Shown in pieces: positions 25,950 to 51,084 of a DNA stretch of 64,000 nt; positions within the stretch are counted from its first letter, which is position 1; each line of letters begins with the position of its first letter. Under the pieces are notes generated by a model. The model did no database searches, had not been told where the DNA came from, and worked only from the letters and a program-made list of their open reading frames with translations. The translations under genes and the position numbers were made by a program. The stretch comes from an uncultured Acidobacteriaceae bacterium. Lineage in GTDB: Bacteria > Acidobacteriota > Terriglobia > Terriglobales > Acidobacteriaceae. The stretch lies in NCBI GenBank assembly GCA_964559875.1, contig CAZLJQ010000004.1:5820-69819 (forward strand), written 5' to 3'.

Positions 25950-26654
25950 TTATGCGGCGGGAGCAGCTCCGGCGAGAGATTCTCCCTGACGCCGCCCAAG
26001 GACGCGCAGAAAGGCGGTCAGCACGGCGCGCTGAGCATCCTCGAGGGCAAGCGGGGGAATGACCGTTATGCTTCCCAGAAGCTGGGCCAGGCGAAAATAG
26101 GAGTTTCGCGATTCGTGCATGAAATCCAACGAGTACTCCGGTTTGCGGGCGCGCGCGGCGACCGGATCGGTATCCAACAGGATGGCTAGCTCCGGACGGG
26201 GCACAATCCATGCGAGCAGCTTGGCGTAGAAGGCCGAGAAGCGATTATTCAGCGGTAGATTGGCCAGTTCATCATAGAGATAACGGTCCATCACAATTAC
26301 CTGCGCTCCATCCAGACGGGCACGGGAGAGCACAAGCCGCAGGTGCACCGCGTCTGCCAGATAAAGCAAGTGGCGGGTCAGAGTGAGATAGGCGGAGTGC
26401 ACATTCTTGTCGCGGCGCTCGACCGGACGGCCGGGCTCACCGACCCCCTTTTCGCTACCCAGAACCTTGTGCACGAACCCCTCGCGAAATCTGGTGGCAA
26501 CCACCACGTCGTCCCAGAAGGTAATGAGCTCACTGGGCAGTCCGAGGTGAGCGATTGCTTCTCGCAGAGCAATGATCTGTGTCGTCTTTCCTGAGCCATC
26601 CAGCCCGGAGAAGCTGACCAGGATCGGTTCACTTAGATTCTGGCGCGATGACAT
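25950..26654 (-). CDS. Thymidylate-kinase-like P-loop kinase
   Basis: The P-loop FSGLDGSGKTTQ is the Tmk-type G-x-D-G-x-GK-T-T. This is the last gene of the 8-gene envelope operon. Confidence 0.65.
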   Translation of the reverse strand: MSSRQNLSEPILVSFSGLDGSGKTTQIIALREAIAHLGLPSELITFWDDVVVATRFREGFVHKVLGSEKGVGEPGRPVERRDKNVHSAYLTLTRHLLYLADAVHLRLVLSRARLDGAQVIVMDRYLYDELANLPLNNRFSAFYAKLLAWIVPRPELAILLDTDPVAARARKPEYSLDFMHESRNSYFRLAQLLGSITVIPPLALEDAQRAVLTAFLRVLGRRQGESLAGAAPAA

Positions 26655-26659
26655 GGCAC

Positions 26660-27166
26660 CTACTTCGCTGCCGCGCTGGCAGAGTGCGGCGGTGTGCTGG
26701 GGGTGGCGTGAGTGAGGCCATAGACCGTTCCAACGGCGATTCCCGCGGCTGCGACGGCCCCGAGCTTGATGACAAGCGACCTGTATTGATGCTGCTTGAC
26801 GGGCGCGATTGCGTTTCCGGCCGGGCGTGATGCGCCGCCTCCAGCGGTTTTCACCTGTTCAGCGGCGGCGGCGCCAAGCGGTTGCTGTTCTCCGGTTTGA
26901 GCAGGTTGAGAAGACTGCTTCGCCGGGGCTGCGGTGGCAGCGGGCTGCGGCGCGTCTGGCAGTGGGACTGTGCTTGGCTGCGAGTTGGCAGGGGGCGATC
27001 CACTGGGCTGCAAGGGACCGGCGGACGGATCGACGGAAACGCCGGACGTGGATTGCTGCTGCGGAGCGATCTGCTGAAACGGTTGGGCGGTTAAGTTGCC
27101 GGAGAACAGCAGCGCAACAACCAACAATGGGACTCCGAGACCGGTGGATCGTTGTTTCATCTTCAC
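26660..27166 (-). CDS. Secreted Pro/Gln/Ala-rich protein with a C-terminal hydrophobic segment (hypothetical)
   Basis: GAGGAG RBS, signal peptide (GLGVPLLVVALLFSGNLTAQP), a low-complexity P/Q/A/S region and a C-terminal LGAVAAAGIAVGTVYGL helix. Confidence 0.5.
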   Translation of the reverse strand: MKMKQRSTGLGVPLLVVALLFSGNLTAQPFQQIAPQQQSTSGVSVDPSAGPLQPSGSPPANSQPSTVPLPDAPQPAATAAPAKQSSQPAQTGEQQPLGAAAAEQVKTAGGGASRPAGNAIAPVKQHQYRSLVIKLGAVAAAGIAVGTVYGLTHATPSTPPHSASAAAK

Positions 27167-27204
27167 GTGAGTATCTCCTCAGGCCAGCGTGTGCCGATAG
27201 CGTC

Positions 27205-27963
27205 CTACTTTGAGTCTCCAACGACTTTCCCGGCGCGCACTGGGTTCATGCGGCCGTCGAGTGACGGGGCCCCGGATGCGTGAGACAGGCGGCGCAAGAC
27301 GCGGCTAACATCGGCGTCGCGGTCATAAAACAGGTTGCGCAGGCGGTTCTGTCCGTAGCGCCACAGGTTGGGCAGATTCGTCTCGTACCAGCATGAGCGC
27401 GGCATCTGGGAGGAAAATCCGCAGAAGATCCGGAACTGATGGCCGAACATGCCTGGGCTGGCAAGCAGCGCAGCGGTAAGTCGGTGATTTCCTTCCAGAA
27501 TGGTGACCGGATTGTGCTCATCGACCCCGATGAGTAGTACCGCACTCTGGTCGTGCTCATTCCGCAAGCGGTAGCTCAAGGCCTGTATGCGGGAGATAAA
27601 CTCGCGCTTGACGCCGGAAAACCTCACCGTGCGAATGCGGTTCACAATGTCGCGAAGCAGGAAACTTTCGCCTGCAATCTTGCGCCACTGGGCACGCGGA
27701 AATACTCTGACGAAGCTGAGATCGCCAGATTCGAGTTCCACCTCCCACCACTGGGTATCGTCGGGCACCTCGCGCCACATGTGTCCGCGGCGGCGAAAGA
27801 GCAGGGCACGGCGCAAGGCGTTCTCATCCTCATTGCCAAGGTCTGCCTCAAGCACCAGGCGTTCAAAGCTATTGCGATCCGCTTGAAACTCCTCGTGGTA
27901 AAACTCGTTCTTCAGGAATTCGGCAATGACTTCGGCCTCAGTGGCCCGTCTTAGCTTCTTCAT
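27205..27963 (-). CDS. Hypothetical protein with a ParB/Srx-like GxHR motif
   Basis: The ATG at 27963 overlaps the upstream stop (ATGA). The upstream in-frame extension to 28128 would lie inside the permease gene. The motif PVTILEGNHRLTAALL resembles the DGhHR core of ParB-like nuclease/sulfiredoxin folds. Confidence 0.6.
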   Translation of the reverse strand: MKKLRRATEAEVIAEFLKNEFYHEEFQADRNSFERLVLEADLGNEDENALRRALLFRRRGHMWREVPDDTQWWEVELESGDLSFVRVFPRAQWRKIAGESFLLRDIVNRIRTVRFSGVKREFISRIQALSYRLRNEHDQSAVLLIGVDEHNPVTILEGNHRLTAALLASPGMFGHQFRIFCGFSSQMPRSCWYETNLPNLWRYGQNRLRNLFYDRDADVSRVLRRLSHASGAPSLDGRMNPVRAGKVVGDSK

Positions 27964-29273
27964 GCTGCCTCCTGACCCAGACCCGGAACACGGCGAAAAA
28001 AAGGAATCGAAACAGCCACGAGCAACAGGCCACGGAGCACCTGCTGAACAATAATTACCTGCATCAGTGAGGCATGAAAGAAGGAGACAGTGAGAACGAT
28101 GAGCAGGCTCACCACCAGTTGCAGCCATCCAGTGTTGGCAATGCGTCGCGACATTTCGTAGGTGATCAACACGACGCAGACGGCATAGACAGCAGTGGCA
28201 ACTGCATTCATGGCCAGCAAATGCTCCACGCCGGCGCCGACCGGATGAAAGTCGCTGCCGAAGAGGGTGCGAATGACCAAGCCGGGAAAGCTGGCGAGAA
28301 AGACCACGAAGACGGTGGAGAGTCCGGCAACGAATAAGAGAGGTACGACCAGCACGCGGCGGCTGTCGCTCTCCGCCTGGCTGCCGGCCGAAACGGGAAA
28401 CATGGCACTGGTTACCGACCAGGTCGCAAAGTACAACAGGCGTCCGACCAGCGCGACGGCAGCATAGATGCCCGCTTCGCTGGGTGCGAAATAATGTTTA
28501 ACCATTAGTATGTCGACGTTGTTTATGATGACTTGGCCGACAAAAAAGATGATGGCCTGAATACCTTCCAATAGCGAGCCGGGCTTGTAGAGCGCGGGAG
28601 CCTGGCGCAGTTCACGGTCGTCCGTGGGAAGCAGGAAGGCGGCAAAGACGGAGAGCGATATTGCGCCGACCGCCCCCATCACTCCGAAACCTCCCATTAC
28701 AAGCACCATCGCTGCGATGAGCTTTACGAAGGCTTCGGCAGCCAGGTTAAGGCTGAGGCGAAGGAAGCGGCAGGTCCCTTGCATGCCGCCGCGGCGCACG
28801 CCGAGCGGTATGTAAAAAAGCATACCGAGGCCGAGCAGCACCACCAGCGTGGAAGAAGGCATTCGCAGGTAGGCGGCGATCCAGTTTCTGGCGCCAACAA
28901 AAAACGCCGCCAGCAGGAAGCCGGTTAGCCATGCGCGATGCATGAGGTATTGGTAGACTGCAGCGCGCTCGTCCGGAGGAGTCGTTTTGGCAATCAGCTT
29001 TGCAGTGACAAGCTGGTACGCGAGGTTAATGCAGGAGGCCAGCATGAGCAGCGTGACGGCAGCCGCAGCCTGGCTGAAATCTCCTGGACCGAGCAAGTGC
29101 GCGACCCCGATGTTGTAGCCAAAGTTGGCCAGCGACACAAGAACAGAACCGGCCAGCATGACAACGCCACCGGTAAACACCTTGCCCTCTGAGCCACCTG
29201 ACCTCAGAGTCTCGATTGCGGTGCGCATCCGAGATTGCGGCCAGGAGCCCAATGTCTGTTCGCGAACGCTCAC
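27960..29273 (-). CDS. PST/MOP-family polysaccharide transporter (Wzx/PelG-like)
   Basis: About 12 predicted TM helices and the typical flippase segment SEAGIYAAVALVGRLLYFATWSVTSAMFPV. Confidence 0.7.
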   Translation of the reverse strand: MSVREQTLGSWPQSRMRTAIETLRSGGSEGKVFTGGVVMLAGSVLVSLANFGYNIGVAHLLGPGDFSQAAAAVTLLMLASCINLAYQLVTAKLIAKTTPPDERAAVYQYLMHRAWLTGFLLAAFFVGARNWIAAYLRMPSSTLVVLLGLGMLFYIPLGVRRGGMQGTCRFLRLSLNLAAEAFVKLIAAMVLVMGGFGVMGAVGAISLSVFAAFLLPTDDRELRQAPALYKPGSLLEGIQAIIFFVGQVIINNVDILMVKHYFAPSEAGIYAAVALVGRLLYFATWSVTSAMFPVSAGSQAESDSRRVLVVPLLFVAGLSTVFVVFLASFPGLVIRTLFGSDFHPVGAGVEHLLAMNAVATAVYAVCVVLITYEMSRRIANTGWLQLVVSLLIVLTVSFFHASLMQVIIVQQVLRGLLLVAVSIPFFRRVPGLGQEAA

Positions 29274-29668
29274 GCCGCCTTCCTTTCGCCATTTCCAGCC
29301 GCCACCGGAGTAGAGCGGAACTGGCGGACCATGTTGGGGAGATATCCACTGAAGCTGTGCGCCGCCTCGGCAGAGCTGGCAAAGATTTCAAAGAGCCTGC
29401 TCGCCCGGGTTAAATCCAATACGATCTGCGCCTGCGGACTCAGCGAAGCCAGCTTCAAATCGCCATCCCGGCGCGAGGCCTCCTTCATGCACTGAAGCAG
29501 CATGTCCACTCCGGCGGCATCGATCCTGCGCACCAGCGAAAGGTCGAAGACGATCTGAGGACGGTCATGCTCCAACAGCGGCTTTACTTCTTCCAGAAAG
29601 GCCCGGGCTTGCTTCAGGTTCAGGTTCTCTGGAACGCGCTTTACGATCACAGGTCTACTCGTTTCCAT
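29270..29668 (-). CDS. STAS-domain protein (anti-sigma-antagonist fold)
   Basis: GGGAGG RBS 4 nt before the ATG at 29668. STAS core: IVFDLSLVRRIDAAGVDMLLQC...LKLASLSPQAQIVLDLTRASRLFEIF. The Ser that is normally phosphorylated (DSSG) is replaced here, giving DAAG. Confidence 0.75.
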   Translation of the reverse strand: METSRPVIVKRVPENLNLKQARAFLEEVKPLLEHDRPQIVFDLSLVRRIDAAGVDMLLQCMKEASRRDGDLKLASLSPQAQIVLDLTRASRLFEIFASSAEAAHSFSGYLPNMVRQFRSTPVAAGNGERKAA

Positions 29669-30863
29669 ATCGCCTCCCGGCGGCCATTTCTCTATAAGAC
29701 TTTGTCTGTGACTCGACCGGCGCCAGAGCGGCATCGGGCATAGCCGAGATTTGTGACATTGCCTCGGACGGGGAACCCAAATTGGTTTCCGTTCTGGAAC
29801 CAAAGATCAACCTCCAACCAATCGTTGGCAGGAGATTGATCAGCCAGCTAAGCCCTGCGATAAGACGTACAGAAATATCAGTAGTGGTCGCACCAATCAG
29901 GTGCGGATCTTCGATGTTGACGGTCAGCTCCCGCGGCACGCTATGCACCTGGCGGAATCCCACGATGGAATGTTCCACATCCAGGCCTGCGCCAACCCGA
30001 GTGAATGGCATCACGTTGGAGTTTTCAATCACGGTGGCACAATCGACCTCGGAGTGATGCTCCAAAGAACTGCCGCGAGTAATCACCGCGTCGCGCCGCA
30101 CGCTGCAGTAATCTCCGATGAAGGCCGGGGCAACCACGCGCGCACAACGATGAACATGTGCGCCTCGGCCGATCCACACACCGGGACGCAGTTCGCGGCC
30201 ACAAGGATGAATCTCGCATTCGCCGGCAAAAGCATCCAGGCTGAGGGCACGCAGATCAGCCGGAGTGGCCAGCAGGTTTACATAGCCATCGCAGTAGTGC
30301 ACGGCAGTGGCAATGCGCTCGTCGCGTAGTTCGCCGCGCAGGAGGGCTGCGGCCTCGGTCTGGTTGCCGGAGGAGATCACAAAGACATCGAGCGCCTCAT
30401 TGGCCGGCGAATAGGCCCTCAAGATGGCAGAGCCCGAATCCCGGTGCTGGTTCACCATGGCGGCGAAATCCACCTCAGCCCAAGCGCCAAGGCGTAACAC
30501 CAGGACACGCTCCGAATGACGGCTCAGGCGGCGGAACTTCTGCAAGGCATCGTCCCAAAAGTGCTGCGGGCTAGCAACGCTGAACTTACAGGTGACAGAC
30601 TTGGGATGCGGCAAAGGATCGGTATCACTGACAACCGTTATCTCGGCCACGCCAGCGGCGCGGATGCGATCCAGCGTACGCATGAGCACGCTACGCCCCA
30701 ACACGTCGAGCAGCGCCAGGGGATATTCGCCAAAACGCTCGGCTTCCTGCCTGCCGCCGACCAGCACCAAAGCATGAACTCCAGCAAGGCCACGTGACGC
30801 GGGAGCAACGCGATGAAGAGCTCCGGATCGAAGTTTGCGCGCTCCTAGGCCCATGGATACCAC
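29655..30863 (-). CDS. Nucleotidyltransferase-like protein with a left-handed beta-helix domain (degenerate active-site loop)
   Basis: Rossmann-like N-terminus (ALVLVGGRQEAERFGEYPLALLDVLGRSVLMRTLDRI), an LbH hexapeptide region (GVWIGRGAHVHRCARVVAPAFIGDYCSVRRDAVI) and a C-terminal hydrophobic helix (LIAGLSWLINLLPTIGWRLIFG). Confidence 0.6.
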   Translation of the reverse strand: MVSMGLGARKLRSGALHRVAPASRGLAGVHALVLVGGRQEAERFGEYPLALLDVLGRSVLMRTLDRIRAAGVAEITVVSDTDPLPHPKSVTCKFSVASPQHFWDDALQKFRRLSRHSERVLVLRLGAWAEVDFAAMVNQHRDSGSAILRAYSPANEALDVFVISSGNQTEAAALLRGELRDERIATAVHYCDGYVNLLATPADLRALSLDAFAGECEIHPCGRELRPGVWIGRGAHVHRCARVVAPAFIGDYCSVRRDAVITRGSSLEHHSEVDCATVIENSNVMPFTRVGAGLDVEHSIVGFRQVHSVPRELTVNIEDPHLIGATTTDISVRLIAGLSWLINLLPTIGWRLIFGSRTETNLGSPSEAMSQISAMPDAALAPVESQTKSYREMAAGRRYGNE

Positions 30864-32095
30864 CTAGGCGCAGTGGCGCGGAAGATCGCCGAACGAAGCG
30901 GGACCCATCCTGGCAGCCTTCGGAAGCGCGTAAAGGGCTGCAGCGCCCGATGTCCCTGCTGCGTGCTGAAGGAGCGCAGATACTGACTGATGATCATTGG
31001 CATGGTTTGACGCAAAGCGACGGAAAAGTTTGCCTCGCCCATCTCGCGCTGTATCGCCGGACTTTCTAAAACGCTCACAATGCAATCGGCCATACTGTGT
31101 GCGTTGCCGGTTTCAAAGAAACTGATCGCGAGTTGCTCGTCGGCGCTCATCTCGCGGAAGTCGGCGATATCGGCGCAAACGATAGGCAAGCCGTATTCGC
31201 AAGCCATGTGAGCAACGCCGCTAGAGCCGGTGGCGGAAGAGTAAGGCATCACCATCAGGCTGGACGAGGCACAGAGTTCGTAAACGTCCTCCTCCGCGAC
31301 GTAGCCTGTGAAGCGAATATTAGGGTTGTCGGCATAACGCTCGGCAATCCGCTCGACGTAGCCCGGAGCAGCCGGATGATTGCCGCCTGCAATGACCAGA
31401 CGCGCCAGAGGAACGCGCTCCACGATCTCCGCAAAGGCCTCGATCAGCAACTCTAGCCGTTTGTAGGTACCCCACTTGCCAAAAGCAAGGATGCGATGTT
31501 CAGGGTTGCCGCGCTTTTCAAACGCAGGCGGCTCGGGCCGTGCCGAGAGAATGCCATGAGCACGAAAATGGACATTATCACCGTTGTACTTTTGCATCAG
31601 CGTGCGGCGATAAGCGGGCAACAGCACGGAAATCGAGTTGGCCATCAAGAGTGCGCGCGTGGCCAAGTATCCCGCGGCGCGGTAGCTGCGCGGATAGCGA
31701 ATACCGGCATGTTGAAGATCCACGTTGTCCATCAGATGGTGCAGGGTGACGTGGGTGTAAGTCCCTGACAACCTAGTCAGTACCGGGATAGTCAGTCCGG
31801 CGAAGGCGGCCGCGGGCTTGGCCCCGAAGGTGGAGAACAACAGATTGAACCAGACCACGTCAGGCTTTAGCTCGCGAATCACGCGCAACAGGCGCACAGG
31901 GTTGCCGAGACTATTGAAGTCCCAGCAGCGGATTACCTCGAATTCATCCATCTCTGGCTGGACAGTCTCCAGAGTATCGCCGAGGATGGTAAGGCTCAGC
32001 AGCGGGTCGCTCTGCAGTTCGCGAGCGATATGGAATCCGTATTCGTTGAGCCCCCGCCGCGAAGGCGGGAACGCTGTCACCAGACAAATCTTCAT
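30845..32095 (-). CDS. GT4-family (GT-B) glycosyltransferase
   Basis: MKICLVTAFPPSRRGLNEYG N-terminus and a Glycos_transf_1-type C-terminal half (RLVIAGGNHP...SSATGSSGVAHMACEYGLPIV). Confidence 0.85.
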   Translation of the reverse strand: MKICLVTAFPPSRRGLNEYGFHIARELQSDPLLSLTILGDTLETVQPEMDEFEVIRCWDFNSLGNPVRLLRVIRELKPDVVWFNLLFSTFGAKPAAAFAGLTIPVLTRLSGTYTHVTLHHLMDNVDLQHAGIRYPRSYRAAGYLATRALLMANSISVLLPAYRRTLMQKYNGDNVHFRAHGILSARPEPPAFEKRGNPEHRILAFGKWGTYKRLELLIEAFAEIVERVPLARLVIAGGNHPAAPGYVERIAERYADNPNIRFTGYVAEEDVYELCASSSLMVMPYSSATGSSGVAHMACEYGLPIVCADIADFREMSADEQLAISFFETGNAHSMADCIVSVLESPAIQREMGEANFSVALRQTMPMIISQYLRSFSTQQGHRALQPFTRFRRLPGWVPLRSAIFRATAPRWYPWA

Positions 32096-32109
32096 GGGGC
32101 CCCCTGACC

Positions 32110-35100
32110 CTAAAACAACGTCAGACGAACTACCGGACGCAGTATCGTCTGGTTGTGGCCAGTAAAATTAAAGTAGTTCGCGTTCTGAACTCCGAGGGAG
32201 AACCGGATCGGATATTCCACCGGCACTCGCCCGAAGCTGTCGCTTACATCGCGACGCAGCGGTCTGGTGTAAGAGATGAGAAAACTGCTCTGCACGTTGT
32301 CATAGTCGTGAATTCCTTCCCCTCGCGAGAAAATAAAATCGCCGTATGCGCCCCAACGTCTTGTGGGTTTCCATTCAACCTCCGTCTCGGGACAGAAGGC
32401 CTGTGCAATCCAGTAGTTCAAGTCTTGTACGCGCCACGACCGTATATATGTGCCCAGCACGGCGAGGCGCAGCTTTTCACTGAACTCATGCTGCAGCCCG
32501 GCCGAGGTCGAGGTGGAATAGAACTCGCGGATCAGGGGGCGGAAGAGCAGATCGCGCGAGCTGTAGGCGGTGATGAACTGCGTGCGTCCCCACGGACGGC
32601 CAACGATGAACTGCAGGCGTGCGCCCAACTCTCGCGAATGCAGGTTCTGGTCGGTGAATGGGCCGGTCTCATGGAAGGCTTCCGCCTGTACCGTAAGCCA
32701 GTTTCCGAGCGCATTTGTGGACATGTAGGCAAACTGCCGGAAGAGGTTCTGATTGAGTTCGACCGGGCTCTCCTTGTCGCGCCGCAGGGTGAATTGCAGA
32801 CCGGTATTGAACGTGATTGTGGCCGAGCCGAGTTTGAGCACAGGGTTAAGCGCACTGTTAGCCGTGTAATCCCACGTGTCGCGATTGATGATGAGCTCTT
32901 CGCTGGGCAGTGAAATCTGGCCGGTAGCATTGCGTACCTGGAAGAATCCGCTGACTCCGGGATACTTGCCGAGTCCGGCACGATAGCCATTGGTCCACAG
33001 AGTTTCGAGCGAGGAGCGGGGCGGCGGGATAGCCCCTCCCTGTGCGTTGTGAAAAATCTGACGGTCGAGGCCCAAGATGGTAGCGTCATCAATGATGCCG
33101 TGCACCAGAACATCGGAATTGACGCTAACCCTGCGGCTCACCTGCACACCCTGCTCTCCGGCTGCCTGTACCATAGCGAACTCGGCCGAGTCGTCTTCGC
33201 CGCCGAGCTGATTGGCGCGCGCAAAAGCCGTCATGGCCTGGAATTGCTGGTGTTCCTGACGGTAAACATTGGCCTGCGCCATGGTGTAGTCGAAGTTGTT
33301 CGCAAACTCCGCCGGGTTGCCCAACTTCGCAAGCTGGTTCTGGGCCTCTGCGGTGCGGCCTTCAGCGATGGCTGAGTTCGCCATGCCGATGGTCACAACT
33401 TCATCGGCAGCGCCTGCCTGGTGTGCGCGCTCGTAGTAACGCCGCGCAAGATCGAAGTCGTCCATGGCGAGAAAGAGATTCGCGGCTTCGAGGAAGTTGT
33501 CGCTGTTGACCGGGGAAGCTTCTCCAACCCGCGATTCAGCAAAGGCCAACGCAATCTGTTGCTGCGCCGCCTCATACTTGTGCTGCTTGACGAAGACGCG
33601 CGCGAAGAGCAGACGGGCGTCAACGCGGTTGGCATCCGGAGCCTCCAGCGCGCGAGCAAAACGCTGCATGGCCGCTCCCTCATCGCCCATGGTCAGCAGC
33701 GCGGTGCCGGTGTTGAGCAGGATGGACGATGTGTTCGGGCTTTGCTTTTCTGCCGCAGCGATATAACGCATGGCCGCGTCGCGGTGATGCAACTCGGCGT
33801 GAGCGTTGGCAAGCTGAGCGTAAATCTCAGGGTCATCGGGCGAGATGGCGAGCGCTGCATTCAGAGTCTGGATGGCAGCGGGATAGCGGCGCGAGTGAAA
33901 TTGAGTGTCGGCCAACGCCAATTGGAGCTTCAGATTGTCAGGTGCATACTTGATCGCCGCGATGTACTCCTGCTCTGCCTTATCGAGCAAATGCAGGTCG
34001 CGATACGCGGTAGCGCGCGCAAGATGAGTGGCGCCAGATTCGCCAAGCAGCTTCTCGGCTTCGCCGGTTTCCTCCAGGGCGGCTCGACCGTGGTGTAGTT
34101 GCAACTCGGAGAAAGCCAAGCCAAGGTGGGCGACGCCATTGGAAGACTGCATCGCAAGCGCCGAGCGGAAGTCGCGCATCGCGGCGTCTGGGTTCTGCAG
34201 ATCGTTAAGCACGTAGCCACGGTTTACGTAACCCTCCACCATCTTTGGATCGCGCCGTATGGCTTCGGTATAGTCCTCAACCGCCTGCTGCAGAAGCTGG
34301 TTCTGCTTGTGCACGTGGCCGGTGAGCAAGGGAAAGTTGGCCTCGTTTGGCAACAGTGCTGTGTAATGGGATGTTAGGGTGAGCACGTCGTCAAAGCGCC
34401 CGAGGTTGTACAAATCGTATGCCAGATAGACGGCCGCATTGCGGTCGTTTTGCAACTGGGACAGCACCTGGTAGCCAAGGCGTGCCGACTCGGCGTACTT
34501 GCCCTGATGAAACAGAACTCGCTCACGTTCGCGCATCACGCGGGGATCGTCGAGCAGACTTCCGGTGGCACGGTCCACCCAGCTACCGGCATCGCTGATG
34601 CGGCCTGCCTCGAGGGCGGCATTGGCTGCGTTGGCTATGACCACGGCATTGCGTGGTGCACGCTTGAATGCCTGCTCGTAGGAGGCGTTGGCACGATCGA
34701 ATTGCCTAGCCGACGCAAAAAGGTCGCCCAGCGCGAGATACGGCACATAGTCATCCGGATAATCGGCAGCCATTTGCTGGAAGTAGCGCTCGGCGGAGGC
34801 GGTGTCGTTTTGCTCGCGCGCGATGTATCCCATTGCTTCCAGGGCGTAGCGATTCTTCGGGTCGGTTTCGAGAATCTGGGCGTAGAGCTTGCGCGCCTCG
34901 TCGCTCCGCTTGGCGTGCCAGAGCAGATTCGCGTATTGCAGAGTGATGGCGGGATTGCCTGGGTCCAGACGCATGGCTTCCTTCAGATCGCTCTCTGCTC
35001 CGTCCAGATCGTTGACCCCCAGACGTATGGAGGCACGCACACGCAAGAACTCCGCGCGAGGAGCGCCTTCGAGATGCAATTGATTGACCAAGGTCTCGGC

Positions 35101-36300
35101 AGATGCGATTTGCTGCTTCGCTGCCGCTTCATCGCCCGTCTCGTGGTAGATTTCCGCAAGATTCAATCGCAGCTCAATCGGGTAGAGCGGCCCCTCAGGC
35201 ACCTCAGCATTGGGCAAGCTGGCAATCGCGGCTTGGTACTCGCGGATCGCATCCGGATTGCGGTTCTGCATGTGGGCAAGCTGCGCGTTGAGCGCATGCA
35301 GCCGGTAGTGATTGGGATCGATCTGCGTGGCGCGGGCGAGAAACGCGCGCGCGCCGTCCATCTCTCCCAGATGCAGCTCTGCCTGTGCCGCGCTCAACTG
35401 CAACCCGATCTGCCGTGGCAAAAGGTTGGCCGCACGTTTGTAGCTTTCTGCAGCCAGCCGCTGATCTCCAGCAAGTTCGTAAGTGTAAGCAAGATCGGCC
35501 AGCACCTCGGGATTCTGCCCGGATGCATTCTTGAGCGCCGCAATCGCTGCTGGGTAGTCGTGCTGCTCGCGGTAGAAATTTGCGACGGCGCGGAAGACCG
35601 ACGGGTTCTTTGGGTCGTGGCTTTTCGCCCGCTCCAACATCTGCCGAGCGCGCTCGGGTTGCTTCAGCTTTAGATAGGCAACAGCCAGCATCACTTCGGC
35701 ATGCGACGTAGGATGCACCGACTCGGCGCGTGCAAGCAGCGCAATGCCCTGCTGCACGTCACCGCTCTGCAGGAAGAGCTCACCTGCCATCAGCAGATCG
35801 TTCTCGCGTTGCGGCGCGGCACTTATGACCTGCATAAAGAGCCGCCGGGCGTCGCTTAGCTGTCCCATGCGCTGATACGTCTGAGCCAAACCGCTAAGTC
35901 CATCCAGATTGTTGCGCTCGATCTTCAATCCCTGCTGGTATGCATCCACTGACTTGGGAAATTGGCCTGCTAGCCGGGAAGCATAGCCCAAAAGAAACCA
36001 GAGCCGGGCGTTCTGCGGCGCAGCCTTCACCGCCCGCTCGGCAGCCACAGCTGCGCCTGCGGAGTTGCCTCGCTTCAAATCGTCTTCGGCAGCACGGGCG
36101 TTACGCCCCACTTCAATGCTCGTACCCCAGCCCATTCCTTCTGTGGCGGGCTTCTTCGAGTTCTTTGAACCATTTTGTGAACCGCTCCCCAGGTCTATCT
36201 CTTGCGCGCAGAGGAGCAGCGGCAAGAACAACAGAAAGCAAAGCGAGCTGGTGACCAACAGATTTTTTTTCACTGGGCTACTCAAAATTGCCACGCTCAT
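32110..36300 (-). CDS. Giant TPR-repeat protein with a predicted C-terminal outer-membrane beta-barrel (BcsC/PgaA/PelB-like exporter scaffold)
   Basis: Signal peptide (LCFLLFLPLLLCAQE) and roughly 950 aa of TPR units. The last roughly 430 aa show an alternating amphipathic strand pattern and end in the OMP-type terminal Phe (RPVVRLTLF). Confidence 0.8.
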   Translation of the reverse strand: MSVAILSSPVKKNLLVTSSLCFLLFLPLLLCAQEIDLGSGSQNGSKNSKKPATEGMGWGTSIEVGRNARAAEDDLKRGNSAGAAVAAERAVKAAPQNARLWFLLGYASRLAGQFPKSVDAYQQGLKIERNNLDGLSGLAQTYQRMGQLSDARRLFMQVISAAPQRENDLLMAGELFLQSGDVQQGIALLARAESVHPTSHAEVMLAVAYLKLKQPERARQMLERAKSHDPKNPSVFRAVANFYREQHDYPAAIAALKNASGQNPEVLADLAYTYELAGDQRLAAESYKRAANLLPRQIGLQLSAAQAELHLGEMDGARAFLARATQIDPNHYRLHALNAQLAHMQNRNPDAIREYQAAIASLPNAEVPEGPLYPIELRLNLAEIYHETGDEAAAKQQIASAETLVNQLHLEGAPRAEFLRVRASIRLGVNDLDGAESDLKEAMRLDPGNPAITLQYANLLWHAKRSDEARKLYAQILETDPKNRYALEAMGYIAREQNDTASAERYFQQMAADYPDDYVPYLALGDLFASARQFDRANASYEQAFKRAPRNAVVIANAANAALEAGRISDAGSWVDRATGSLLDDPRVMRERERVLFHQGKYAESARLGYQVLSQLQNDRNAAVYLAYDLYNLGRFDDVLTLTSHYTALLPNEANFPLLTGHVHKQNQLLQQAVEDYTEAIRRDPKMVEGYVNRGYVLNDLQNPDAAMRDFRSALAMQSSNGVAHLGLAFSELQLHHGRAALEETGEAEKLLGESGATHLARATAYRDLHLLDKAEQEYIAAIKYAPDNLKLQLALADTQFHSRRYPAAIQTLNAALAISPDDPEIYAQLANAHAELHHRDAAMRYIAAAEKQSPNTSSILLNTGTALLTMGDEGAAMQRFARALEAPDANRVDARLLFARVFVKQHKYEAAQQQIALAFAESRVGEASPVNSDNFLEAANLFLAMDDFDLARRYYERAHQAGAADEVVTIGMANSAIAEGRTAEAQNQLAKLGNPAEFANNFDYTMAQANVYRQEHQQFQAMTAFARANQLGGEDDSAEFAMVQAAGEQGVQVSRRVSVNSDVLVHGIIDDATILGLDRQIFHNAQGGAIPPPRSSLETLWTNGYRAGLGKYPGVSGFFQVRNATGQISLPSEELIINRDTWDYTANSALNPVLKLGSATITFNTGLQFTLRRDKESPVELNQNLFRQFAYMSTNALGNWLTVQAEAFHETGPFTDQNLHSRELGARLQFIVGRPWGRTQFITAYSSRDLLFRPLIREFYSTSTSAGLQHEFSEKLRLAVLGTYIRSWRVQDLNYWIAQAFCPETEVEWKPTRRWGAYGDFIFSRGEGIHDYDNVQSSFLISYTRPLRRDVSDSFGRVPVEYPIRFSLGVQNANYFNFTGHNQTILRPVVRLTLF

Positions 36301-36495
36301 GCCGATGAAGCGAGAAACTCGAATTCATCTGCTTGGGATGCAGAGAAGCCGCAAATGGTCTTATCGCTAAGGTTGCAGAATCAGGAAACTGCGCAAGATC
36401 GCAGGAATCTGGGGCTCGCGGCAAACCTATCAGCAGCTCTGGGAATCTCACTTAATCGCGGTAAGGCGGAGACAAATCCCTTGAATTCGAAGTCC

Positions 36496-38235
36496 ATGCT
36501 TTCCTCAAGCCGTGGCATTCCACTGCTGGCGATTGTCCTGTTGGCCCTGGCGGTCCACGGCCCGTTGCTGCTGATGCAGCTTCCCGCCAACTCGTATGAT
36601 GCGACCACCCACATTTTTTTTGCGGCTCACTACGCGCACCACTGGTTCTCACCGTGGAATGAAAAATGGTTCGGTGGAATGTCGCAGACCACCTATCCCC
36701 CGCTGACCCACCAATGGATTGCGTTGTTCTCGCATTTGTTTGGGTTAACCGGCGCTTACATGTTTGTGCAGCTGATCGCGATACTTCTGCTGCCGGTAGG
36801 GATGTTTCGCTATGCGCGACTCTGGATCCCAGAGCGCGAGGCCAGCTATGCCGCGCTAGGCTCGGTTTTTCTGGGATCACTGGCGATGCTGGTCTACCAA
36901 TCCGGCCAGTTGCCCACCATCACGGCGGCGGCACTCACGTTGAACGCGTTACCCTACTTCTATCGGTGGACGCGCGATGGCGGAGCAGGCCAACTACTGA
37001 GGGGAGCTGCTATTTCCGTGGCAGGAGCCGCGGCTCATCACGTCACGTTTCTCTTCGGAGCCATTCTGTTTGCGCTGCCGGTAATCTGGCTGAGCGTGCT
37101 CGACCGCAATGAAAGTGAGCGCAAGTCATCGGCTGCAGGAATGCTGGGACGCGCGGCTGTCTTCGCCGTCATTATCCTGGTGGCAGGAATCGTAGTGCTG
37201 CTTCCCTACTTCATTGCTCTGCGCCATAACCCGATCACCCAAATACCCATTCCGCATCAGTCGCGCGACAACTACATCCTGGTGCCGCACAGCGGAATGA
37301 ACTTCTGGATCATTCCGATGGGCGCGCTGATTCTCGCCATTCCATACATCCTGTTCAAGGGGGCTGCGGAACGCCGTCTGCGGCCGCTTATGTTTGGCTG
37401 GTATTTGACTACCCTGCTCGGGCTCGGCGGAACGACGCCAGTCGGACGCTTGCTGCTGGGCCGTGCGTTTGAGGTGCTCACCTTCGAACGGTTCACCTTC
37501 TGGGCAACCCTGATGGCGCTGCCGTTTGTGGGCCTGCTCGCCGCTTGGATGATCGATCGGTGGGGGCGCCGTGGAGCGGTGCTACTCGGGATTGCCGCCA
37601 CTTATAGCTGCGCGATGGCAGTGGCATGGGTGGTCTTCAATCCGATCAACAGCGGAGACTTCCGGGTACAACAGGTGATCGACTTCCTGAACCGCGAAGA
37701 TCACGCGAAGTATCGCTACATTACGCTCGGTTTCGGCAACCAGTTTGCCAAGGTCTCCGCCTACGCCAAAGCTGGAAGTCTTGACGGAGATTACAACTCG
37801 GCACGACTGCTGCCCGAACTGACCGCCCACGGAGCCGGCCAACTCTACAACTCAAAGTACTACGGAACCGGCGGAATGGAGGCTCTGCGCGCAATCCTGA
37901 AGCACGCCGACCAGTATGGACTGCGCTACGTTTTTGTGCGCGACCGCTACTACGAGCCGCTCCTGGCCTTTGCCGGATGGCGGCAGGCGGAGGTCTATGA
38001 CAACGGCGCCACCGCACTGTGGACAAAGGACGATGTGCCCCCAGCGAAGCATTTGGACTTTGGCGCTGCCGTGCCGACCAGATGGGAGGGCATCATGTGG
38101 GGACTACTTCCAGTGGGCGCAAGCTTGTTTGCGATCTTCGTGGTTCTGCTTCCTGAGCGGCGGCGCTATTCGGAGGCAATCGAGTTCCCATCGTCATCCG
38201 ATTCGCGCGAAATCTCTTTGCGGGAGGCCCATTAG
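36496..38235 (+). CDS. GT-C fold membrane glycosyltransferase (ArnT/PMT_2-like)
   Basis: Start at the ATG at 36496 (MLSSSRGIPLLAIVLLALAV). The first periplasmic loop, SYDATTHIFFAAHYAHHWFSPWNEKWFGG...TYPPLTHQWIALFSHLFG, follows the ArnT/PMT pattern (acidic residue, aromatic stretch, then PPL-x-x-W). At least 10 TM helices are followed by a soluble domain of about 190 aa and a final TM. Confidence 0.55.
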   Translation: MLSSSRGIPLLAIVLLALAVHGPLLLMQLPANSYDATTHIFFAAHYAHHWFSPWNEKWFGGMSQTTYPPLTHQWIALFSHLFGLTGAYMFVQLIAILLLPVGMFRYARLWIPEREASYAALGSVFLGSLAMLVYQSGQLPTITAAALTLNALPYFYRWTRDGGAGQLLRGAAISVAGAAAHHVTFLFGAILFALPVIWLSVLDRNESERKSSAAGMLGRAAVFAVIILVAGIVVLLPYFIALRHNPITQIPIPHQSRDNYILVPHSGMNFWIIPMGALILAIPYILFKGAAERRLRPLMFGWYLTTLLGLGGTTPVGRLLLGRAFEVLTFERFTFWATLMALPFVGLLAAWMIDRWGRRGAVLLGIAATYSCAMAVAWVVFNPINSGDFRVQQVIDFLNREDHAKYRYITLGFGNQFAKVSAYAKAGSLDGDYNSARLLPELTAHGAGQLYNSKYYGTGGMEALRAILKHADQYGLRYVFVRDRYYEPLLAFAGWRQAEVYDNGATALWTKDDVPPAKHLDFGAAVPTRWEGIMWGLLPVGASLFAIFVVLLPERRRYSEAIEFPSSSDSREISLREAH

Positions 38236-38237
38236 CC

Positions 38238-39332
38238 ATGAACAAGATCTTGCCCGTTCTGCTTATTGTTCTCGCCATGGTGCTGGTCGCCGCCTCTACC
38301 ATACATTCCTCGACTCTCACTCCGGCCGCCACACCCCAGAGTGCGGTGGATTCGTTGCTGAACCATGTAAAGATGCGCGATGCCCCGGCGGCCTATCGTT
38401 ACGTGGCCAAGGCCGGCAATACAAGTCCGGAGGATTTTGCGCGCGACGTCTTTGGCCAAGACAGCAACCTGCGCACCTACTCCGCATTGCAGCAGTTCAA
38501 TACCAAGGTGCTGCATGAGGACGACCAGCAGGCTGTAGTGCGCGCCAGTCTGGAATGGGCCTCGGCGGTAGGCGCCGTGTATGACACACGCGACTTGAAG
38601 GTAGTGCGCGAGGACAACAGTTGGAAGGTTTTGTGGCCTGTGCAGCCACGCGCCAAGGTTCCGCCACAGGTGATTCCGGTGAACTATCTGCGCTGGGACA
38701 TTGTGACTCGCGGCGCAGATGACGACTGGGGTGCGCAAAACGTGGACGCTCCGCGGGTCCGCATCATCTCCATGAATCCGGTGGAGCACGATGGCAACTT
38801 CATTCTTCTGGGCGAGATTGAAAATGAGGACACTGTGCCGGGGTTTGTCTCCGTGGAAGCCACGCTCATCGGAAAAGACGGCCAACCGTTCGCGCAGGAA
38901 GAGAGCTTTGACAAAATCAGCCACGTGCTGCTGCCCAAAGAAATTTCTCCCTTCCGTATCGACTTTCCAAACGTGAGCCGCAGCCGCATTCAGAGCGTAC
39001 ACATGCAGCCCAATGCCATGCTGGTTCCAGCCTCGACCGACCCAGTGATGGGAGTAATTCATCAGGCTTTGCAGAAAGATGCACGGGGACACCTAGTACT
39101 GAGCGGCGAGTTGATGAACCAGAGCGGGCAAACCGTGAACATCCCGCACGTACTCGCCACGTTTTACGACAACACAGGCAAGGTCATCTGGGTATCGGAC
39201 GGTTATGTAGATCAAGCGCTGGTGCCGCAGACGCCAGTGGCCTTCAGCATCGGCGTGCGCGATGATCTCGCTCCGCAGATTCACAGCTACCGTGTCACGG
39301 TGAACCAGTACAGCCGTGACCGGGTGCAGTAA
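38238..39332 (+). CDS. Membrane-anchored protein: NTF2-like module plus two beta-sandwich repeats (hypothetical)
   Basis: 2-nt gap from the upstream stop and an N-terminal anchor (ILPVLLIVLAMVLVAAS). There is an internal duplication: NFILLGEIENEDTVPGFVSVEATLIGKDGQPF versus HLVLSGELMNQSGQTVNIPHVLATFYDNTGKVI. Confidence 0.6.
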   Translation: MNKILPVLLIVLAMVLVAASTIHSSTLTPAATPQSAVDSLLNHVKMRDAPAAYRYVAKAGNTSPEDFARDVFGQDSNLRTYSALQQFNTKVLHEDDQQAVVRASLEWASAVGAVYDTRDLKVVREDNSWKVLWPVQPRAKVPPQVIPVNYLRWDIVTRGADDDWGAQNVDAPRVRIISMNPVEHDGNFILLGEIENEDTVPGFVSVEATLIGKDGQPFAQEESFDKISHVLLPKEISPFRIDFPNVSRSRIQSVHMQPNAMLVPASTDPVMGVIHQALQKDARGHLVLSGELMNQSGQTVNIPHVLATFYDNTGKVIWVSDGYVDQALVPQTPVAFSIGVRDDLAPQIHSYRVTVNQYSRDRVQ

Positions 39333-39344
39333 CAGGAGGCGGTG

Positions 39345-40199
39345 ATGAATACACTGCGGCGAGGGTTCGTTCTCGGAGTCTTCTGCGCGGCATCGGCATT
39401 TTGTACGGCACAGCTGCGGATCTCGGTCCCGGTCGCAGCCGGAGCGGAAGTCACGTTGCAGGCACCCGGCTCGGGCAACACAACGCTTTACCTTTTCGGC
39501 CCCGGCGGTGCCAGCAAACGTTCCGTACAGCGTGGCGCGATCAAGCTCTCTAGCGACGAATTGAAGACAGCCGGACATTACACTGCAATTCTGGATGGCA
39601 GCAGCACATCGTTTTTCGTAATTGCCGCGTCTCTCGATAACGTCTCTTTTCTCGCTCATCCCTCGCGCGTTCCAACCAATACCGGTAGCGCGGTAACTGG
39701 CACGGCTTTTCTATTCGACCGCTTTCACAATCTTGTGCTCACGCCAACTCCAGTCAGCTTCCGGCTGGCTTTGGAGGAAACTTCCGGCGAGGAGCGCAGG
39801 GTAACCTCGAGGGATGGAGTTGCCTGGGTGCAGTTGAATTCAGGAAGACGCAGCGGCCCGGCGCGGTTCACTGCATCCTCCGGCGATTTGGAAGTGCGGC
39901 GAGTGGTCCAGCAGGTAGCGGCCGATCCTTGCTCTATTCGCATGAAGGCTGGGCACGCACCAGACGGCAACATCCTGGTGGAGACCGATCCCATTCGAGA
40001 CTGCTCCGGCAATGCCGTGCCTGACGGCACGATCGTTACATTCACATCGGTCGATGAGGCGGGACGCAGCACGGTGGATGCCCGCATCAAGCGCGGATTT
40101 GCGCGGGCTGAGCTACCCCCGTCTCACTCCGCTACGTTGACAGTGGCCGCCGGTGTTGTGCTGGGTAATGAAATCCACTGGGGAGGTGGCGAGCGATGA
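39345..40199 (+). CDS. Secreted protein with Ig-like (Big_1-like) repeats (hypothetical)
   Basis: AGGAGG RBS and signal peptide MNTLRRGFVLGVFCAASAFCTAQ. Segments such as DCSGNAVPDGTIVTFTSVDEAGRSTVDARIKRGFARAEL...ATLTVAAG fit bacterial Ig-like patterns. Confidence 0.55.
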   Translation: MNTLRRGFVLGVFCAASAFCTAQLRISVPVAAGAEVTLQAPGSGNTTLYLFGPGGASKRSVQRGAIKLSSDELKTAGHYTAILDGSSTSFFVIAASLDNVSFLAHPSRVPTNTGSAVTGTAFLFDRFHNLVLTPTPVSFRLALEETSGEERRVTSRDGVAWVQLNSGRRSGPARFTASSGDLEVRRVVQQVAADPCSIRMKAGHAPDGNILVETDPIRDCSGNAVPDGTIVTFTSVDEAGRSTVDARIKRGFARAELPPSHSATLTVAAGVVLGNEIHWGGGER

Positions 40200-40744: not shown

Positions 40745-40885
40745 ATTCGCGCGGAGTGCCTGAACCAGGCAAGATTCGCAATGTGGAAGCCGACCCTACC
40801 CAACCTGTGCTGTTTCTTAGCCTAGAATAGAATAATGCTTCGGTGGTAGGCCTCAGCGCATCAAAGTACCACTGGCTTGGTGAAC

Positions 40886-43085: not shown

Positions 43086-43148
43086 CGCAACCCAGTGGTT
43101 TTTCCGAAGCGGCCAGAGTGGCGCCGCGCGAGGTGCTACACTTCCCCC

Positions 43149-45385: not shown

Positions 45386-45407
45386 ATCGAATGTCGTGCA
45401 GAGCGGA

Positions 45408-51057: not shown

Positions 51058-51084
51058 CGTGCACCTTTATTACCTAAAATCGGG

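Follow-up and report, generated by a model that had tools for sequence, protein, structure and literature searches.

The window analysed here, a 64,000-nucleotide stretch of DNA from an uncultured Acidobacteriaceae bacterium, carries two divergently transcribed operons with 13 genes between positions 25950 and 43027. We tentatively read them as a single envelope machine, which would assemble a glycan on a lipid carrier in two compartments, export it via an outer-membrane pore and be gated by a STAS protein; our confidence in this reading is somewhat less than even. Each part of the cluster comes from a known class. The combination is not described, and the literature searched on this gene set, on PF10131 and on exopolysaccharide (EPS) or STAS proteins of Deinococcus holds no description of the cluster. 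A first-pass annotation, made from the sequence alone, had taken the eight minus-strand genes for a Pel-like EPS operon with unusual accessory genes. The outline of that proposal stands, since a 16-strand barrel, a GT4 glycosyltransferase and a PST permease are reminiscent of PelB, PelF and PelG. The attribution to Pel is not supported, as no Pel-named model was matched and the barrel has no sequence link to PelB.

Two divergent operons

The features of the block are as follows (lengths in amino acids, aa).

25950-26654, minus strand: Tmk-like P-loop kinase, 234 aa (PF02223; not the housekeeping deoxythymidine monophosphate (dTMP) kinase)
26660-27166, minus strand: Pro/Gln/Ala-rich bitopic protein, 168 aa (two hydrophobic segments)
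27205-27963, minus strand: LEGNHRL protein, cytoplasmic, 252 aa from ATG (invariant motif; possible ParB/Srx-like nucleotide-binding fold)
27960-29273, minus strand: PST/MOP-family polytopic permease (Wzx-type flippase family), 437 aa (Pfam matches of orthologues, hydrophobic segments)
29270-29668, minus strand: single-domain STAS protein, 132 aa from ATG (PF01740)
29655-30863, minus strand: pseudo-nucleotidyltransferase with left-handed beta-helix, 402 aa (weak Pfam matches; GMPP/eIF2B-type two-domain protein)
30845-32095, minus strand: GT4 (GT-B fold) cytoplasmic glycosyltransferase, 416 aa (Pfam)
32110-36300, minus strand: TPR/beta-barrel protein, 1396 aa (open reading frame and Pfam TPR matches; proposed periplasmic scaffold and outer-membrane exit pore)
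36301-36495, no strand: divergent intergenic region between both operons, presumed to be a shared promoter region
36496-38235, plus strand: GT-C-clan membrane glycosyltransferase, 579 aa from ATG (family matches; proposed periplasmic transferase or polymerase)
38238-39332, plus strand: membrane-anchored periplasmic protein, 364 aa, with an NTF2-like domain and two FxLYD/DUF3426-type beta-sandwiches
39342-40199, plus strand: secreted Ig-like (Big_1-like) protein, 285 aa (weak Big_1 match, signal segment)
40196-40744, plus strand: membrane-anchored periplasmic protein, 182 aa (N-terminal transmembrane helix; NTF2-like by eye)
40877-43027, plus strand: secreted TPR protein (TPR716), 716 aa, last gene of the divergent operon (Pfam TPR matches, signal segment)

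All eight co-directional minus-strand open reading frames (ORFs) of the first-pass annotation were found in the ORF listing and the translations. The junctions it described are present as well, namely an ATGA at 27960-27963 and overlaps of 14 nucleotides (29655-29668) and 19 nucleotides (30845-30863). The remaining gaps inside the block measure 5, 14 and 38 nucleotides. One junction had been missed: the stop codon of the STAS gene and the start codon of the permease gene share a GTGA (29270-29273), by which the STAS gene is, to judge from the overlap, translationally coupled to the permease gene. Terminator-like hairpins inside the block do not exceed the shuffled expectation, and no sigma-70-like promoter was matched in 36301-36495, by a type of scan that may not apply to Acidobacteria. 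Three plus-strand ORFs of 252, 225 and 407 aa (32155-35673) face the TPR gene. Their translations are Arg/Gly/Leu-rich and of low complexity, for which reason they were rejected as genes and taken as shadow ORFs of high-GC DNA.

A GT-C-clan protein at the head of the divergent operon

The divergent operon starts 195 nucleotides upstream of the gene for the TPR giant and was overlooked in the first pass. Its 579-aa first product has 848 family representatives in an exhaustive HMMER search. Among 41 aligned members, 13 match PF10131 (PTPS_related), five DUF6541 and two PMT_2; the best PF10131 E-value is 8e-10, and one member (P0451) passes the gathering score. PF10131 belongs to the GT-C clan CL0111 (PMC7801869). 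The 579-aa protein consists of a bundle of transmembrane helices, a loop of about 150 residues and a last transmembrane helix. Directly after the first helix, the family alignment has near-invariant Asp35 and His39 in the motif SYDAxTHxFFAxHY, the position at which GT-C enzymes bear their catalytic acid. By these family features, the protein is assigned to the GT-C glycosyltransferase clan.

The 364-aa protein encoded next matches DUF3426 (E 1e-7), the NTF2-like Rv0361_Cterm and FxLYD_dom. Most members of the GT-C family are about 1,000 aa long and contain the 364-aa protein as a fused C-terminal domain, as in P0369 (43% identity) and P0377 (21%, E 4e-17). Homologues of the Ig-like protein follow the GT-C gene in the acidobacterial variant locus L085 (42-45% identity), in the metagenomic loci L087/L088 (29%) and in locus L089 (24%). 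The 182-aa protein has a homologue in L085 (37%) and a 177-aa counterpart in the P0145 locus, where a 721-aa TPR gene occupies the position of the 716-aa TPR gene. It also weakly matches the N-terminus of a GH5 (glycoside hydrolase family 5) protein in the Deinococcus locus L090. The GT-C gene is the divergent neighbour of the minus-strand operon in 70 of 84 related loci.

The same core in other phyla

The GT4, PST, STAS, GT-C and Ig-like proteins recur together outside Acidobacteria, and the GT-C protein is the partner that is most widely conserved with the GT4, PST and STAS genes across phyla. On a megaplasmid of the cultured Deinococcus sp. KNUC1210, the gene order is flippase, GT2 (annotated as 'dolichyl-phosphate beta-glucosyltransferase'), GT4 (44% identical), STAS, PP2C, ATP-binding protein, STAS, GT-C giant, hypothetical protein, GH5, MBOAT, hypothetical protein and AlgF. 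In L087/L088, GT4, PST, GT2, STAS, SpoIIE, an anti-sigma-type kinase and a second STAS gene are followed by a response regulator, an acyltransferase, a GT-C giant and further unknowns. In L089, which is probably from Bacteroidota to judge from a Por_Secre_tail neighbour, a GT2, a GT-C giant and a GH-A hydrolase are encoded on one strand, and GT4, PST and STAS on the opposite one. A 675-aa TPR protein of this locus has a Pfam-less C-terminal half, the last 340 residues of which look barrel-like by eye only. In tblastn searches of the L087-L089 loci with the window proteins, identities were 34-39% for GT4, 24-30% for PST, 30% for STAS (L087/L088), 35-37% for GT-C, 20-21% for the 364-aa protein and 24-29% for the Ig-like protein.

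Gene fusions and adjacencies tie some of these components together directly. P0370, in the L086 context, is a single ORF for a GT-C-like domain together with a GT4 (49% identity to the window GT4); its neighbours are an epimerase, a GT2, two DegT aminotransferases and a DedA protein. D. aquaticus PB-314, with the cluster on pDATS01 (344-374 kb), has a GT2::GT4 fusion in one 651-aa protein. In L087, L089 and D. aquaticus, the GT4 gene adjoins or overlaps the PST gene. A GT2 is present in L085, L086, L087, L089, L090 and L091, and the L090 copy is annotated as a dolichyl-phosphate beta-glucosyltransferase. In seven related contexts, no priming phosphoglycosyl transferase, Wzy, Wzz/Wzc or Wza was found.

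Conservation of the block in Acidobacteria

A scan of GTDB, with one genome per species, using a profile of the 252-aa protein yielded 175 positive genomes, of which the best 80 were analysed; synteny counts were taken by tblastn over 84 loci. The best 80 genomes are all metagenome-assembled genomes (MAGs) of Terriglobia-type Acidobacteriota, a few with wrong bin labels. The eight genes, for which a lack of synteny in relatives would have refuted the first-pass annotation, do not differ in order or orientation between any of the loci that are long enough, a conservation far beyond chance. On contigs where the permease is only 56-61% identical, the eight-gene order is intact and two divergent upstream genes are present too. 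In the P0145 locus, where the barrel is only 49% identical, the same five divergent genes, with the same sizes, flank the eight-gene operon. MAGs L005, L015 and L064, labelled Saccharimonadales, Clostridia and Verrucomicrobiia, carry the cluster in full synteny with most genes 56-86% identical; their bins or labels are almost certainly wrong.

The flanks of the block vary. In at least 44 related loci, the Tmk-like gene is followed by OmpA-Ogt (compare the P0145 locus and L016-L066); the window and 14 close relatives have purF there. The HD-OmpA-Ogt genes of the window (43095-46051) are located past the far end of the block, after TPR716. The arrangement is consistent with an inversion of the 13-gene block as one piece relative to its flanks. 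Because the gene positions fit such a whole-block inversion, 25950-43027 is treated as a single unit. The HD gene of the window (43095-44276), which encodes an HD + HD_assoc (dGTPase-like) phosphohydrolase, follows TPR716, and its counterparts in L001 (13536-14936) and L002 follow the Tmk-like gene. The phosphohydrolase could be a loosely associated partner from nucleotide metabolism, or its position a coincidence.

The acidobacterial variant L085 keeps the TPR-barrel, PST and divergent genes. A homologous GT2 stands there in place of the GT4, pseudo-nucleotidyltransferase, STAS, Pro/Gln-rich and Tmk-like genes. Beside this GT2, a second polytopic membrane protein without a Pfam match is encoded (L085 15541-17112, minus strand), which has the sequence 'AEDAEIYLPG' after its first transmembrane helix and may be another GT-C-like enzyme.

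The TPR/beta-barrel giant

The 1396-aa protein has an N-terminal hydrophobic signal segment and many TPR matches in Pfam; no barrel family of Pfam or NCBIfam was matched. The barrel of outer-membrane type that the first-pass annotation had placed at its end is borne out by modelling. An AlphaFold2 model of residues 941-1396 (456 aa; pLDDT, the predicted local distance difference test score, 89.2; predicted template-modelling score 0.83), based on an alignment of 46 of the domain's 265 homologues, has TPR helices followed by a 16-strand beta-barrel at about residues 1058-1396 (about 340 aa; 32110-33129). None of the 265 homologues of the last 456 residues has a barrel domain in Pfam, and their phylum-level source names are all acidobacterial except for one labelled Aggregatilineales.

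In the Foldseek comparison of the barrel domain with the PDB, the EPS porins PelB (9h80, chain 9h80_M, template-modelling (TM) scores 0.49/0.56), BcsC (6tzk/9b8h, 0.47) and PgaA (4y25, 0.40/0.59), with which the first-pass annotation had compared the giant, have the top TM-scores among the matches listed. Each of the three porins is a 16-strand barrel (PMC12141448). A profile of the domain retrieves only TPR proteins from the PDB sequences, PelB not being among them. The resemblance to PelB is thus architectural.

Frameshifts break up or join many genes in L004 (contig_38218) and in several MFD long-read MAG loci, the TPR giant for instance being called as three to eight fragments, and apparent fusions from such assemblies need caution. 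A STAS::permease fusion, P0062 (702 aa), was set aside, as it sits on the heavily frameshifted contig L004. The PEP-CTERM/XrtA system, which supplies the top NCBIfam matches (PrsT and stp2), was also rejected: the scores are far under the cutoffs, and no exosortase or EpsI is present.

The glycosyltransferase, the permease and the relation to Pel

The GT4 assignment agrees with Pfam matches to PF13692 (Glyco_trans_1_4, E 5e-20) and PF00534 (Glycos_transf_1, E 2e-17). In NCBIfam there are 12 matches, none of them Pel-named; the best, PEP-CTERM stp2 and EpsE, have E-values of about 1e-10 and fall far under the cutoffs. Orthologues with 34-44% identity adjoin PST, STAS and GT-C genes in other phyla. 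The permease, which has about 10 or more hydrophobic segments and over 2,200 homologues, does not itself match any model in Pfam or NCBIfam even at E-values up to 10. Its membership of the PST family, already suggested in the first pass, follows from its orthologues: PF01943 (Polysacc_synt) is matched in 13 of 30 (best E 1.4e-13) and PF13440 in one of 30. A homologue is named O-antigen/teichoic acid export protein by JGI, and the Deinococcus orthologue is named oligosaccharide flippase family protein by PGAP. Pfam contains a PelG model, and neither the permease nor any of its 30 orthologues matches it. When PDB sequences were searched with the permease, barrel region, GT4 and family profiles A1-A4, only TPR repeats and generic GT4 enzymes were found. 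Among the listed tblastn matches of the permease and of the GT4 in a plasmid collection, no gene is annotated as Pel.

The Pfam scan of the window covered about 50 ORFs. As the first-pass annotation had stated, PelA, PelC, PelD, PelE, GT2 synthase, PilZ, Wza and Wzz domains are found neither in the block nor in the window as scanned. In particular, the domains of PelA (GH114/deacetylase), PelC, PelD (GAF and degenerate GGDEF) and PelE are absent from the 13 cluster proteins, among which no receptor domain for cyclic di-GMP (c-di-GMP) was seen either. A priming phosphoglycosyl transferase, Wzy, polysaccharide copolymerases (PCP; Wzz/Wzc) and outer-membrane polysaccharide export proteins (OPX; Wza) are likewise missing from the window ORFs. 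One component of Wzx/Wzy systems, the PST/MOP flippase, is present according to the PF01943 matches of the orthologues, and the GT-C protein could be a functional analogue of the polymerase. The premise that beta-barrel porins mark synthase-dependent systems only, on which the Pel proposal had built, is dated, as Wzx/Wzy pathways with PgaA/BcsC-like porins have been described in Myxococcus (PMC9603273, PMC9601211).

It is nevertheless worth asking whether the cluster is a Pel-like synthase. The GT4 would then polymerise from a nucleotide sugar like PelF, the permease together with the STAS, pseudo-nucleotidyltransferase and LEGNHRL proteins would form a translocon like PelD/E/G, the TPR-barrel would correspond to PelB, and the GT-C operon would decorate the product or be separate. 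The TPR array with a 16-strand barrel that scores best against PelB, BcsC and PgaA among the matches listed fits this view, as does the absence of priming transferase, Wzy, Wzz and Wza. The adjacency or overlap of GT4 and PST genes in L087, L089 and D. aquaticus mirrors pelF-pelG, glycoside hydrolase (GH) and O-acetylation genes of the relatives are typical for synthase-dependent systems, and the GT-C::GT4 fusion could equally represent a membrane partner that holds a processive GT4. We nevertheless consider a Pel-like synthase unlikely. No Pel-named family model is matched by the GT4, the permease and its orthologues match PF01943 and PF13440 instead of PelG (Pel membership of both being judged by family models only), equivalents of PelA, PelC, PelD and PelE are absent by domain, and the barrel profile does not retrieve PelB. 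Moreover, the GT-C protein and a GT2 similar to dolichyl-phosphate-glucose (Dol-P-Glc) synthases are constant partners across phyla, for which a pure synthase has no need.

Accessory proteins

The accessory genes noted in the first pass are real and syntenic, and domain searches with the products of the block matched TPR, GT4, STAS and Thymidylate_kin models and, weakly, NTP_transf_3 and left-handed beta-helix (LbH) models. The STAS protein matches PF01740 (E 8.4e-14), TIGR00377 (E 1e-11, below the cutoff) and, weakly, MlaB-like proteins. The canonical position of the phosphorylated serine is alanine in the window protein (DAAG), and Ala or Gly in most acidobacterial orthologues, with Ser in a few. 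The STAS protein of L087/L088 keeps the serine, and kinase and phosphatase are encoded there. No STAS kinase and no PP2C/SpoIIE phosphatase domain was found by Pfam in the window cluster.

The pseudo-nucleotidyltransferase has matches to NTP_transf_3 (E 5e-6), Hexapep and LbH_EIF2B, all weak. The canonical signature of nucleotidyltransferases such as RmlA, GlmU and GMPPB is G-x-G-T/S-R together with a catalytic lysine (PKPL). In 58 aligned orthologues, a variable insert replaces GxGTR, and P-[LI]-A replaces P-K-P with loss of the lysine, in agreement with the degenerate enzyme suspected in the first pass. It is the fastest-evolving member of the cluster: against nearly all of the remoter relatives, its identity is 31-40%, compared to 55-70% for other genes. 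The protein would be best compared with non-catalytic GMPPA/eIF2B-type proteins that combine nucleotidyltransferase and LbH domains, and is a candidate regulator or sensor of nucleoside diphosphate (NDP) sugars.

The 252-aa LEGNHRL protein has 1682 homologues; the 120 listed are without a Pfam domain, the sole name given in their sources is 'hypothetical protein', and one homologue (P0241) is 100% identical to the window protein. The family has 83 invariant columns, including the entire LEGNHRL motif. Searches of Pfam, NCBIfam (E up to 10) and PDB sequences gave no match. The AlphaFold2 model is poor (pLDDT 48.7), and the top Foldseek matches, KorB, Spo0J, sulfiredoxin, SbnI and Atu1540, are non-significant (E at least 0.066). 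The ParB/Srx-like fold that had been guessed from the motif is therefore plausible as a model. In L085, a 671-aa ORF continues in frame from the C-terminus of the permease into the LEGNHRL protein, and because of this fusion we assign the LEGNHRL protein to the cytoplasmic side of the permease.

The 168-aa Pro/Gln-rich protein has hydrophobic segments at residues 9-27 (N-terminal signal or anchor) and 130-148 (C-terminal transmembrane helix) and matches no Pfam or NCBIfam family at E-values up to 10. Its gene is found at the same position in 82 of the 84 loci, and the protein is probably a disordered linker in the periplasm with an inner-membrane anchor. The Tmk-like gene is syntenic in 81 of the 84 loci. 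At the fold level, its product matches PF02223 (Thymidylate_kin, E 6e-11, 42.8 bits against a threshold of 27), and it scores 43.8 bits against the dTMP kinase equivalog TIGR00041, under the cutoff of 83.25. Direct reading shows an intact P-loop (GLDGSGKTT) and DRY motif but no REP stretch that would bind dTMP.

A proposed two-compartment pathway and its alternatives

From the observed gene content, folds and families, synteny and fusions, we infer a pathway with a lipid carrier, a direction of flow, a polymeric product and regulatory roles for the accessory proteins. In a first step, the cytoplasmic GT4, in relatives together with the Dol-P-Glc-synthase-like GT2, would build or prime a lipid-linked sugar intermediate at the inner face of the inner membrane. 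The PST permease would flip this intermediate. On the periplasmic side, the GT-C enzyme with the 364-aa protein would transfer or polymerise the sugars, the beta-sandwiches holding the chain. Finally, the 1396-aa protein, by means of its TPR arrays and 16-strand barrel, would carry the product across the periplasm and the outer membrane.

GT-C enzymes use polyprenyl-phosphate-linked donors and act at the extracytoplasmic face, and characterised PST members are mostly flippases of lipid-linked glycans. The GT2 of the relatives is presumably of the polyprenyl-phosphate hexose synthase type. Because GT-C enzymes take lipid-phosphate donors outside the cytoplasm, the cluster would encode a flippase-dependent pathway in two compartments rather than a Pel-type synthase, and this model appears to be the most economical in view of the donor side of GT-C, the flippase class of the permease and the type of the GT2. 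The GH5/GH-A and AlgI/AlgF-type O-acetylation genes of the relatives suggest that the product is a secreted, modifiable polysaccharide.

The STAS protein probably gates the complex of permease and glycosyltransferases, by a post-translational mechanism. There are precedents for this in other polysaccharide loci: in Anabaena, a STAS protein directly controls polysaccharide enzymes (All4160/HenR/Alr3423; PMC13555669), and the regulation of polysaccharide by SypA/SypE in Vibrio fischeri implies direct enzyme control (PMC10120452). In Deinococcus and L087/L088, switching of the STAS protein would fall to a SpoIIE/PP2C phosphatase and an anti-sigma-type kinase. This pair is missing from the acidobacterial cluster, in which the pseudo-nucleotidyltransferase, LEGNHRL protein, Pro/Gln-rich linker and Tmk-like kinase would hold the regulatory positions.

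Several points weigh against the envelope machine as outlined here. The likeness of the barrel to EPS porins is moderate (TM below 0.6), with E-values no better than for generic porins. The window 579-aa protein itself matches no Pfam or NCBIfam model, so that its GT-C assignment is transitive, via relatives that are about 30% identical, and the family profile does not find a solved GT-C structure among PDB sequences. No GT2, polyprenyl-phosphate-sugar synthase or priming enzyme is recognisable in the window cluster, a GT2 is not found in the scanned parts of the window as a whole, and we know of no GT4 enzymes that make polyprenyl-monophosphate sugars. Lastly, no TPR-barrel, pseudo-nucleotidyltransferase, LEGNHRL protein or Tmk-like kinase was detected in non-acidobacterial loci (for the barrel and the LEGNHRL protein, hidden Markov model searches gave no counterpart in L086-L089), and the tie of these four genes to the core therefore depends on synteny in one class.

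Alternatively, the system may glycosylate in the periplasm and not export at all. The GT-C enzyme would then decorate lipopolysaccharide (LPS), a lipoglycan, or an outer-membrane or S-layer protein by the logic of GtrABC, ArnC/ArnT, CsbB/YfhO or PMT/TMTC; the TPR proteins would serve to bind substrates, and the TPR-barrel would be a substrate or assembly factor instead of a pore. The triad of GT2, flippase and GT-C in L085, L087, L089 and Deinococcus fits this three-component logic, and the L086 context looks Arn-like. GT-C enzymes with TPR partners (TMTC) are known to glycosylate proteins (PMC7801869), and the location among housekeeping genes, with lineage-wide conservation, is unusual for variable EPS loci. 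However, the flippase is a large PST protein and not of the GtrA type, and a dedicated 16-strand barrel that follows about 1000 aa of TPR in one protein has the architecture of a polymer exporter. The GH5 and AlgI/AlgF-type genes of the relatives imply a free polysaccharide, and the GT4 and the GT2::GT4 fusion suggest that chains are built rather than single sugars added. A pure glycosylation system thus appears even less likely than a Pel-like synthase. It is very improbable that only the TPR-barrel, GT4 and PST form a system, with the STAS, pseudo-nucleotidyltransferase, LEGNHRL, Pro/Gln-rich and Tmk-like genes as co-transcribed passengers: three of these (pseudo-nucleotidyltransferase, LEGNHRL protein, Tmk-like kinase) are not found in the Deinococcus, L087 and L089 loci and L085 does without the GT4 and most of the supposed passengers, but about 80 species share the gene order and the overlapping start and stop codons at 45-85% identity, STAS adjoins PST/GT4 in three phyla, and the LEGNHRL protein is fused to PST in L085.

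The lipid-carrier pathway may also be viewed more broadly, although with greater doubt. The clusters of Acidobacteriota, Deinococcota and probably Bacteroidota could represent a hybrid scheme, the fourth next to the Wzx/Wzy, ABC and synthase schemes. In it, a PST flippase would feed a periplasmic GT-C polymerase physically coupled to GT4/GT2, the product would exit via a TPR/barrel protein, and a STAS switch would act at the complex of flippase and glycosyltransferases, with a set of acidobacterial proteins that sense nucleotides or NDP-sugars replacing the phospho-switch.

Neighbouring genes in the window

The rest of the 64-kb window consists of housekeeping genes, among them purF/purL, prfA/prmC, recG, lipA, prs and pth. 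An extracytoplasmic function (ECF) sigma factor and an adjoining anti-sigma factor with zf-HC2 and HEAT repeats are encoded at 50119-51753 (minus strand). A BBP2/OmpL-like beta-barrel porin is encoded at 6683-8191, and an ankyrin-repeat protein of 223 aa, unusual in bacteria, at 8941-9612. A diguanylate cyclase with GAF-GAF-GGDEF architecture (13942-15501, minus strand), the product of the sole GGDEF-GAF gene of the window, is located at a distance of 10 kb from the cluster. Genes for GGDEF and EAL proteins also flank the cluster of D. aquaticus.

Implications

Acidobacteria rank among the most abundant bacteria in soil, where their surface polymers influence aggregation and carbon retention. 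To our knowledge, their polysaccharide machinery is almost entirely unstudied. The gene-for-gene conservation across the lineage and among housekeeping genes makes the cluster look like a core envelope function and not like a strain-variable capsule. Its core (GT4, PST flippase, STAS and GT-C) recurs in cultured Deinococcus, with D. aquaticus PB-314 and D. grandis as culturable carriers, and is therefore genetically testable. If our reading is correct, two textbook schemes, lipid-carrier/GT-C assembly and TPR-porin export, are joined in one system, and about 850 uncharacterised GT-C proteins gain a pathway context. The complex of flippase and glycosyltransferase would also be a concrete target for STAS regulators such as SypA, for which we know of no identified target.

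Comparison with known systems

Pel (PelABCDEFG) of Pseudomonas aeruginosa shares with the cluster a giant TPR protein with a 16-strand barrel, a soluble GT4 and a permease of the PST superfamily, and post-translational control by a small cytoplasmic receptor-type protein, as in Pel, is plausible here. Unlike Pel, the cluster lacks PelA, PelC, PelD and PelE, a c-di-GMP receptor and Pel-named matches of GT4 and permease. It has the GT-C operon as an obligate neighbour, and the STAS protein, pseudo-nucleotidyltransferase, ParB/Srx-like protein and Tmk-like kinase instead.

The Wzx/Wzy pathways of Myxococcus xanthus (EPS/BPS/MASC; PMC9603273, PMC9601211) are similar in using a PST flippase and a PgaA/BcsC-like barrel in place of Wza. 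In contrast to these pathways, the cluster does not contain OPX, PCP, a Wzy-family polymerase or a priming transferase, and its barrel is preceded by a very long TPR array in the same protein.

From established knowledge, the clusters of L085, L087, L089 and Deinococcus resemble GtrA/B/C, ArnC/E-F/T and CsbB/GtcA/YfhO in combining a GT2 that loads polyprenyl phosphate with a flippase and a GT-C enzyme. The flippase of the cluster is of the PST and not of the GtrA type, the window cluster has no GT2, and the extra GT4, TPR-barrel, GH and O-acetylation genes indicate synthesis and export of a polymer rather than decoration.

With respect to regulation, SypA/SypE and All4160/HenR/Alr3423 are comparable in that a single STAS protein in a polysaccharide locus acts post-translationally, and Deinococcus and L087 have the full kinase/phosphatase set. 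The window STAS protein differs in having Ala at the phosphorylation site and in the absence of kinase and phosphatase. Its candidate target, the permease or the GT4, is suggested by gene adjacency only, and the content of the loci is not the same.

A parallel in logic, from established knowledge, is the assembly of phosphatidylinositol mannosides, lipomannan and lipoarabinomannan (PIM/LM/LAM) and of arabinogalactan in mycobacteria, which relies on the cytoplasmic GT4 enzymes PimA/PimB, the GT2 Ppm1 and the periplasmic GT-C enzymes MptA/EmbC/AftD. There, too, cytoplasmic GT-B/GT4 steps, a polyprenyl-phosphate-sugar GT2 and polytopic GT-C enzymes share the labour, the GT-C enzyme has a periplasmic domain of carbohydrate-binding type, and Wzy, Wzz and Wza play no part. 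The phyla are different, the comparison is made without sequence orthology, and the cluster has in addition a PST flippase, a TPR/beta-barrel exporter and a STAS protein. By analogy, its logic would be that of mycobacterial PIM/LM/LAM assembly joined to an outer-membrane exporter of the synthase type.

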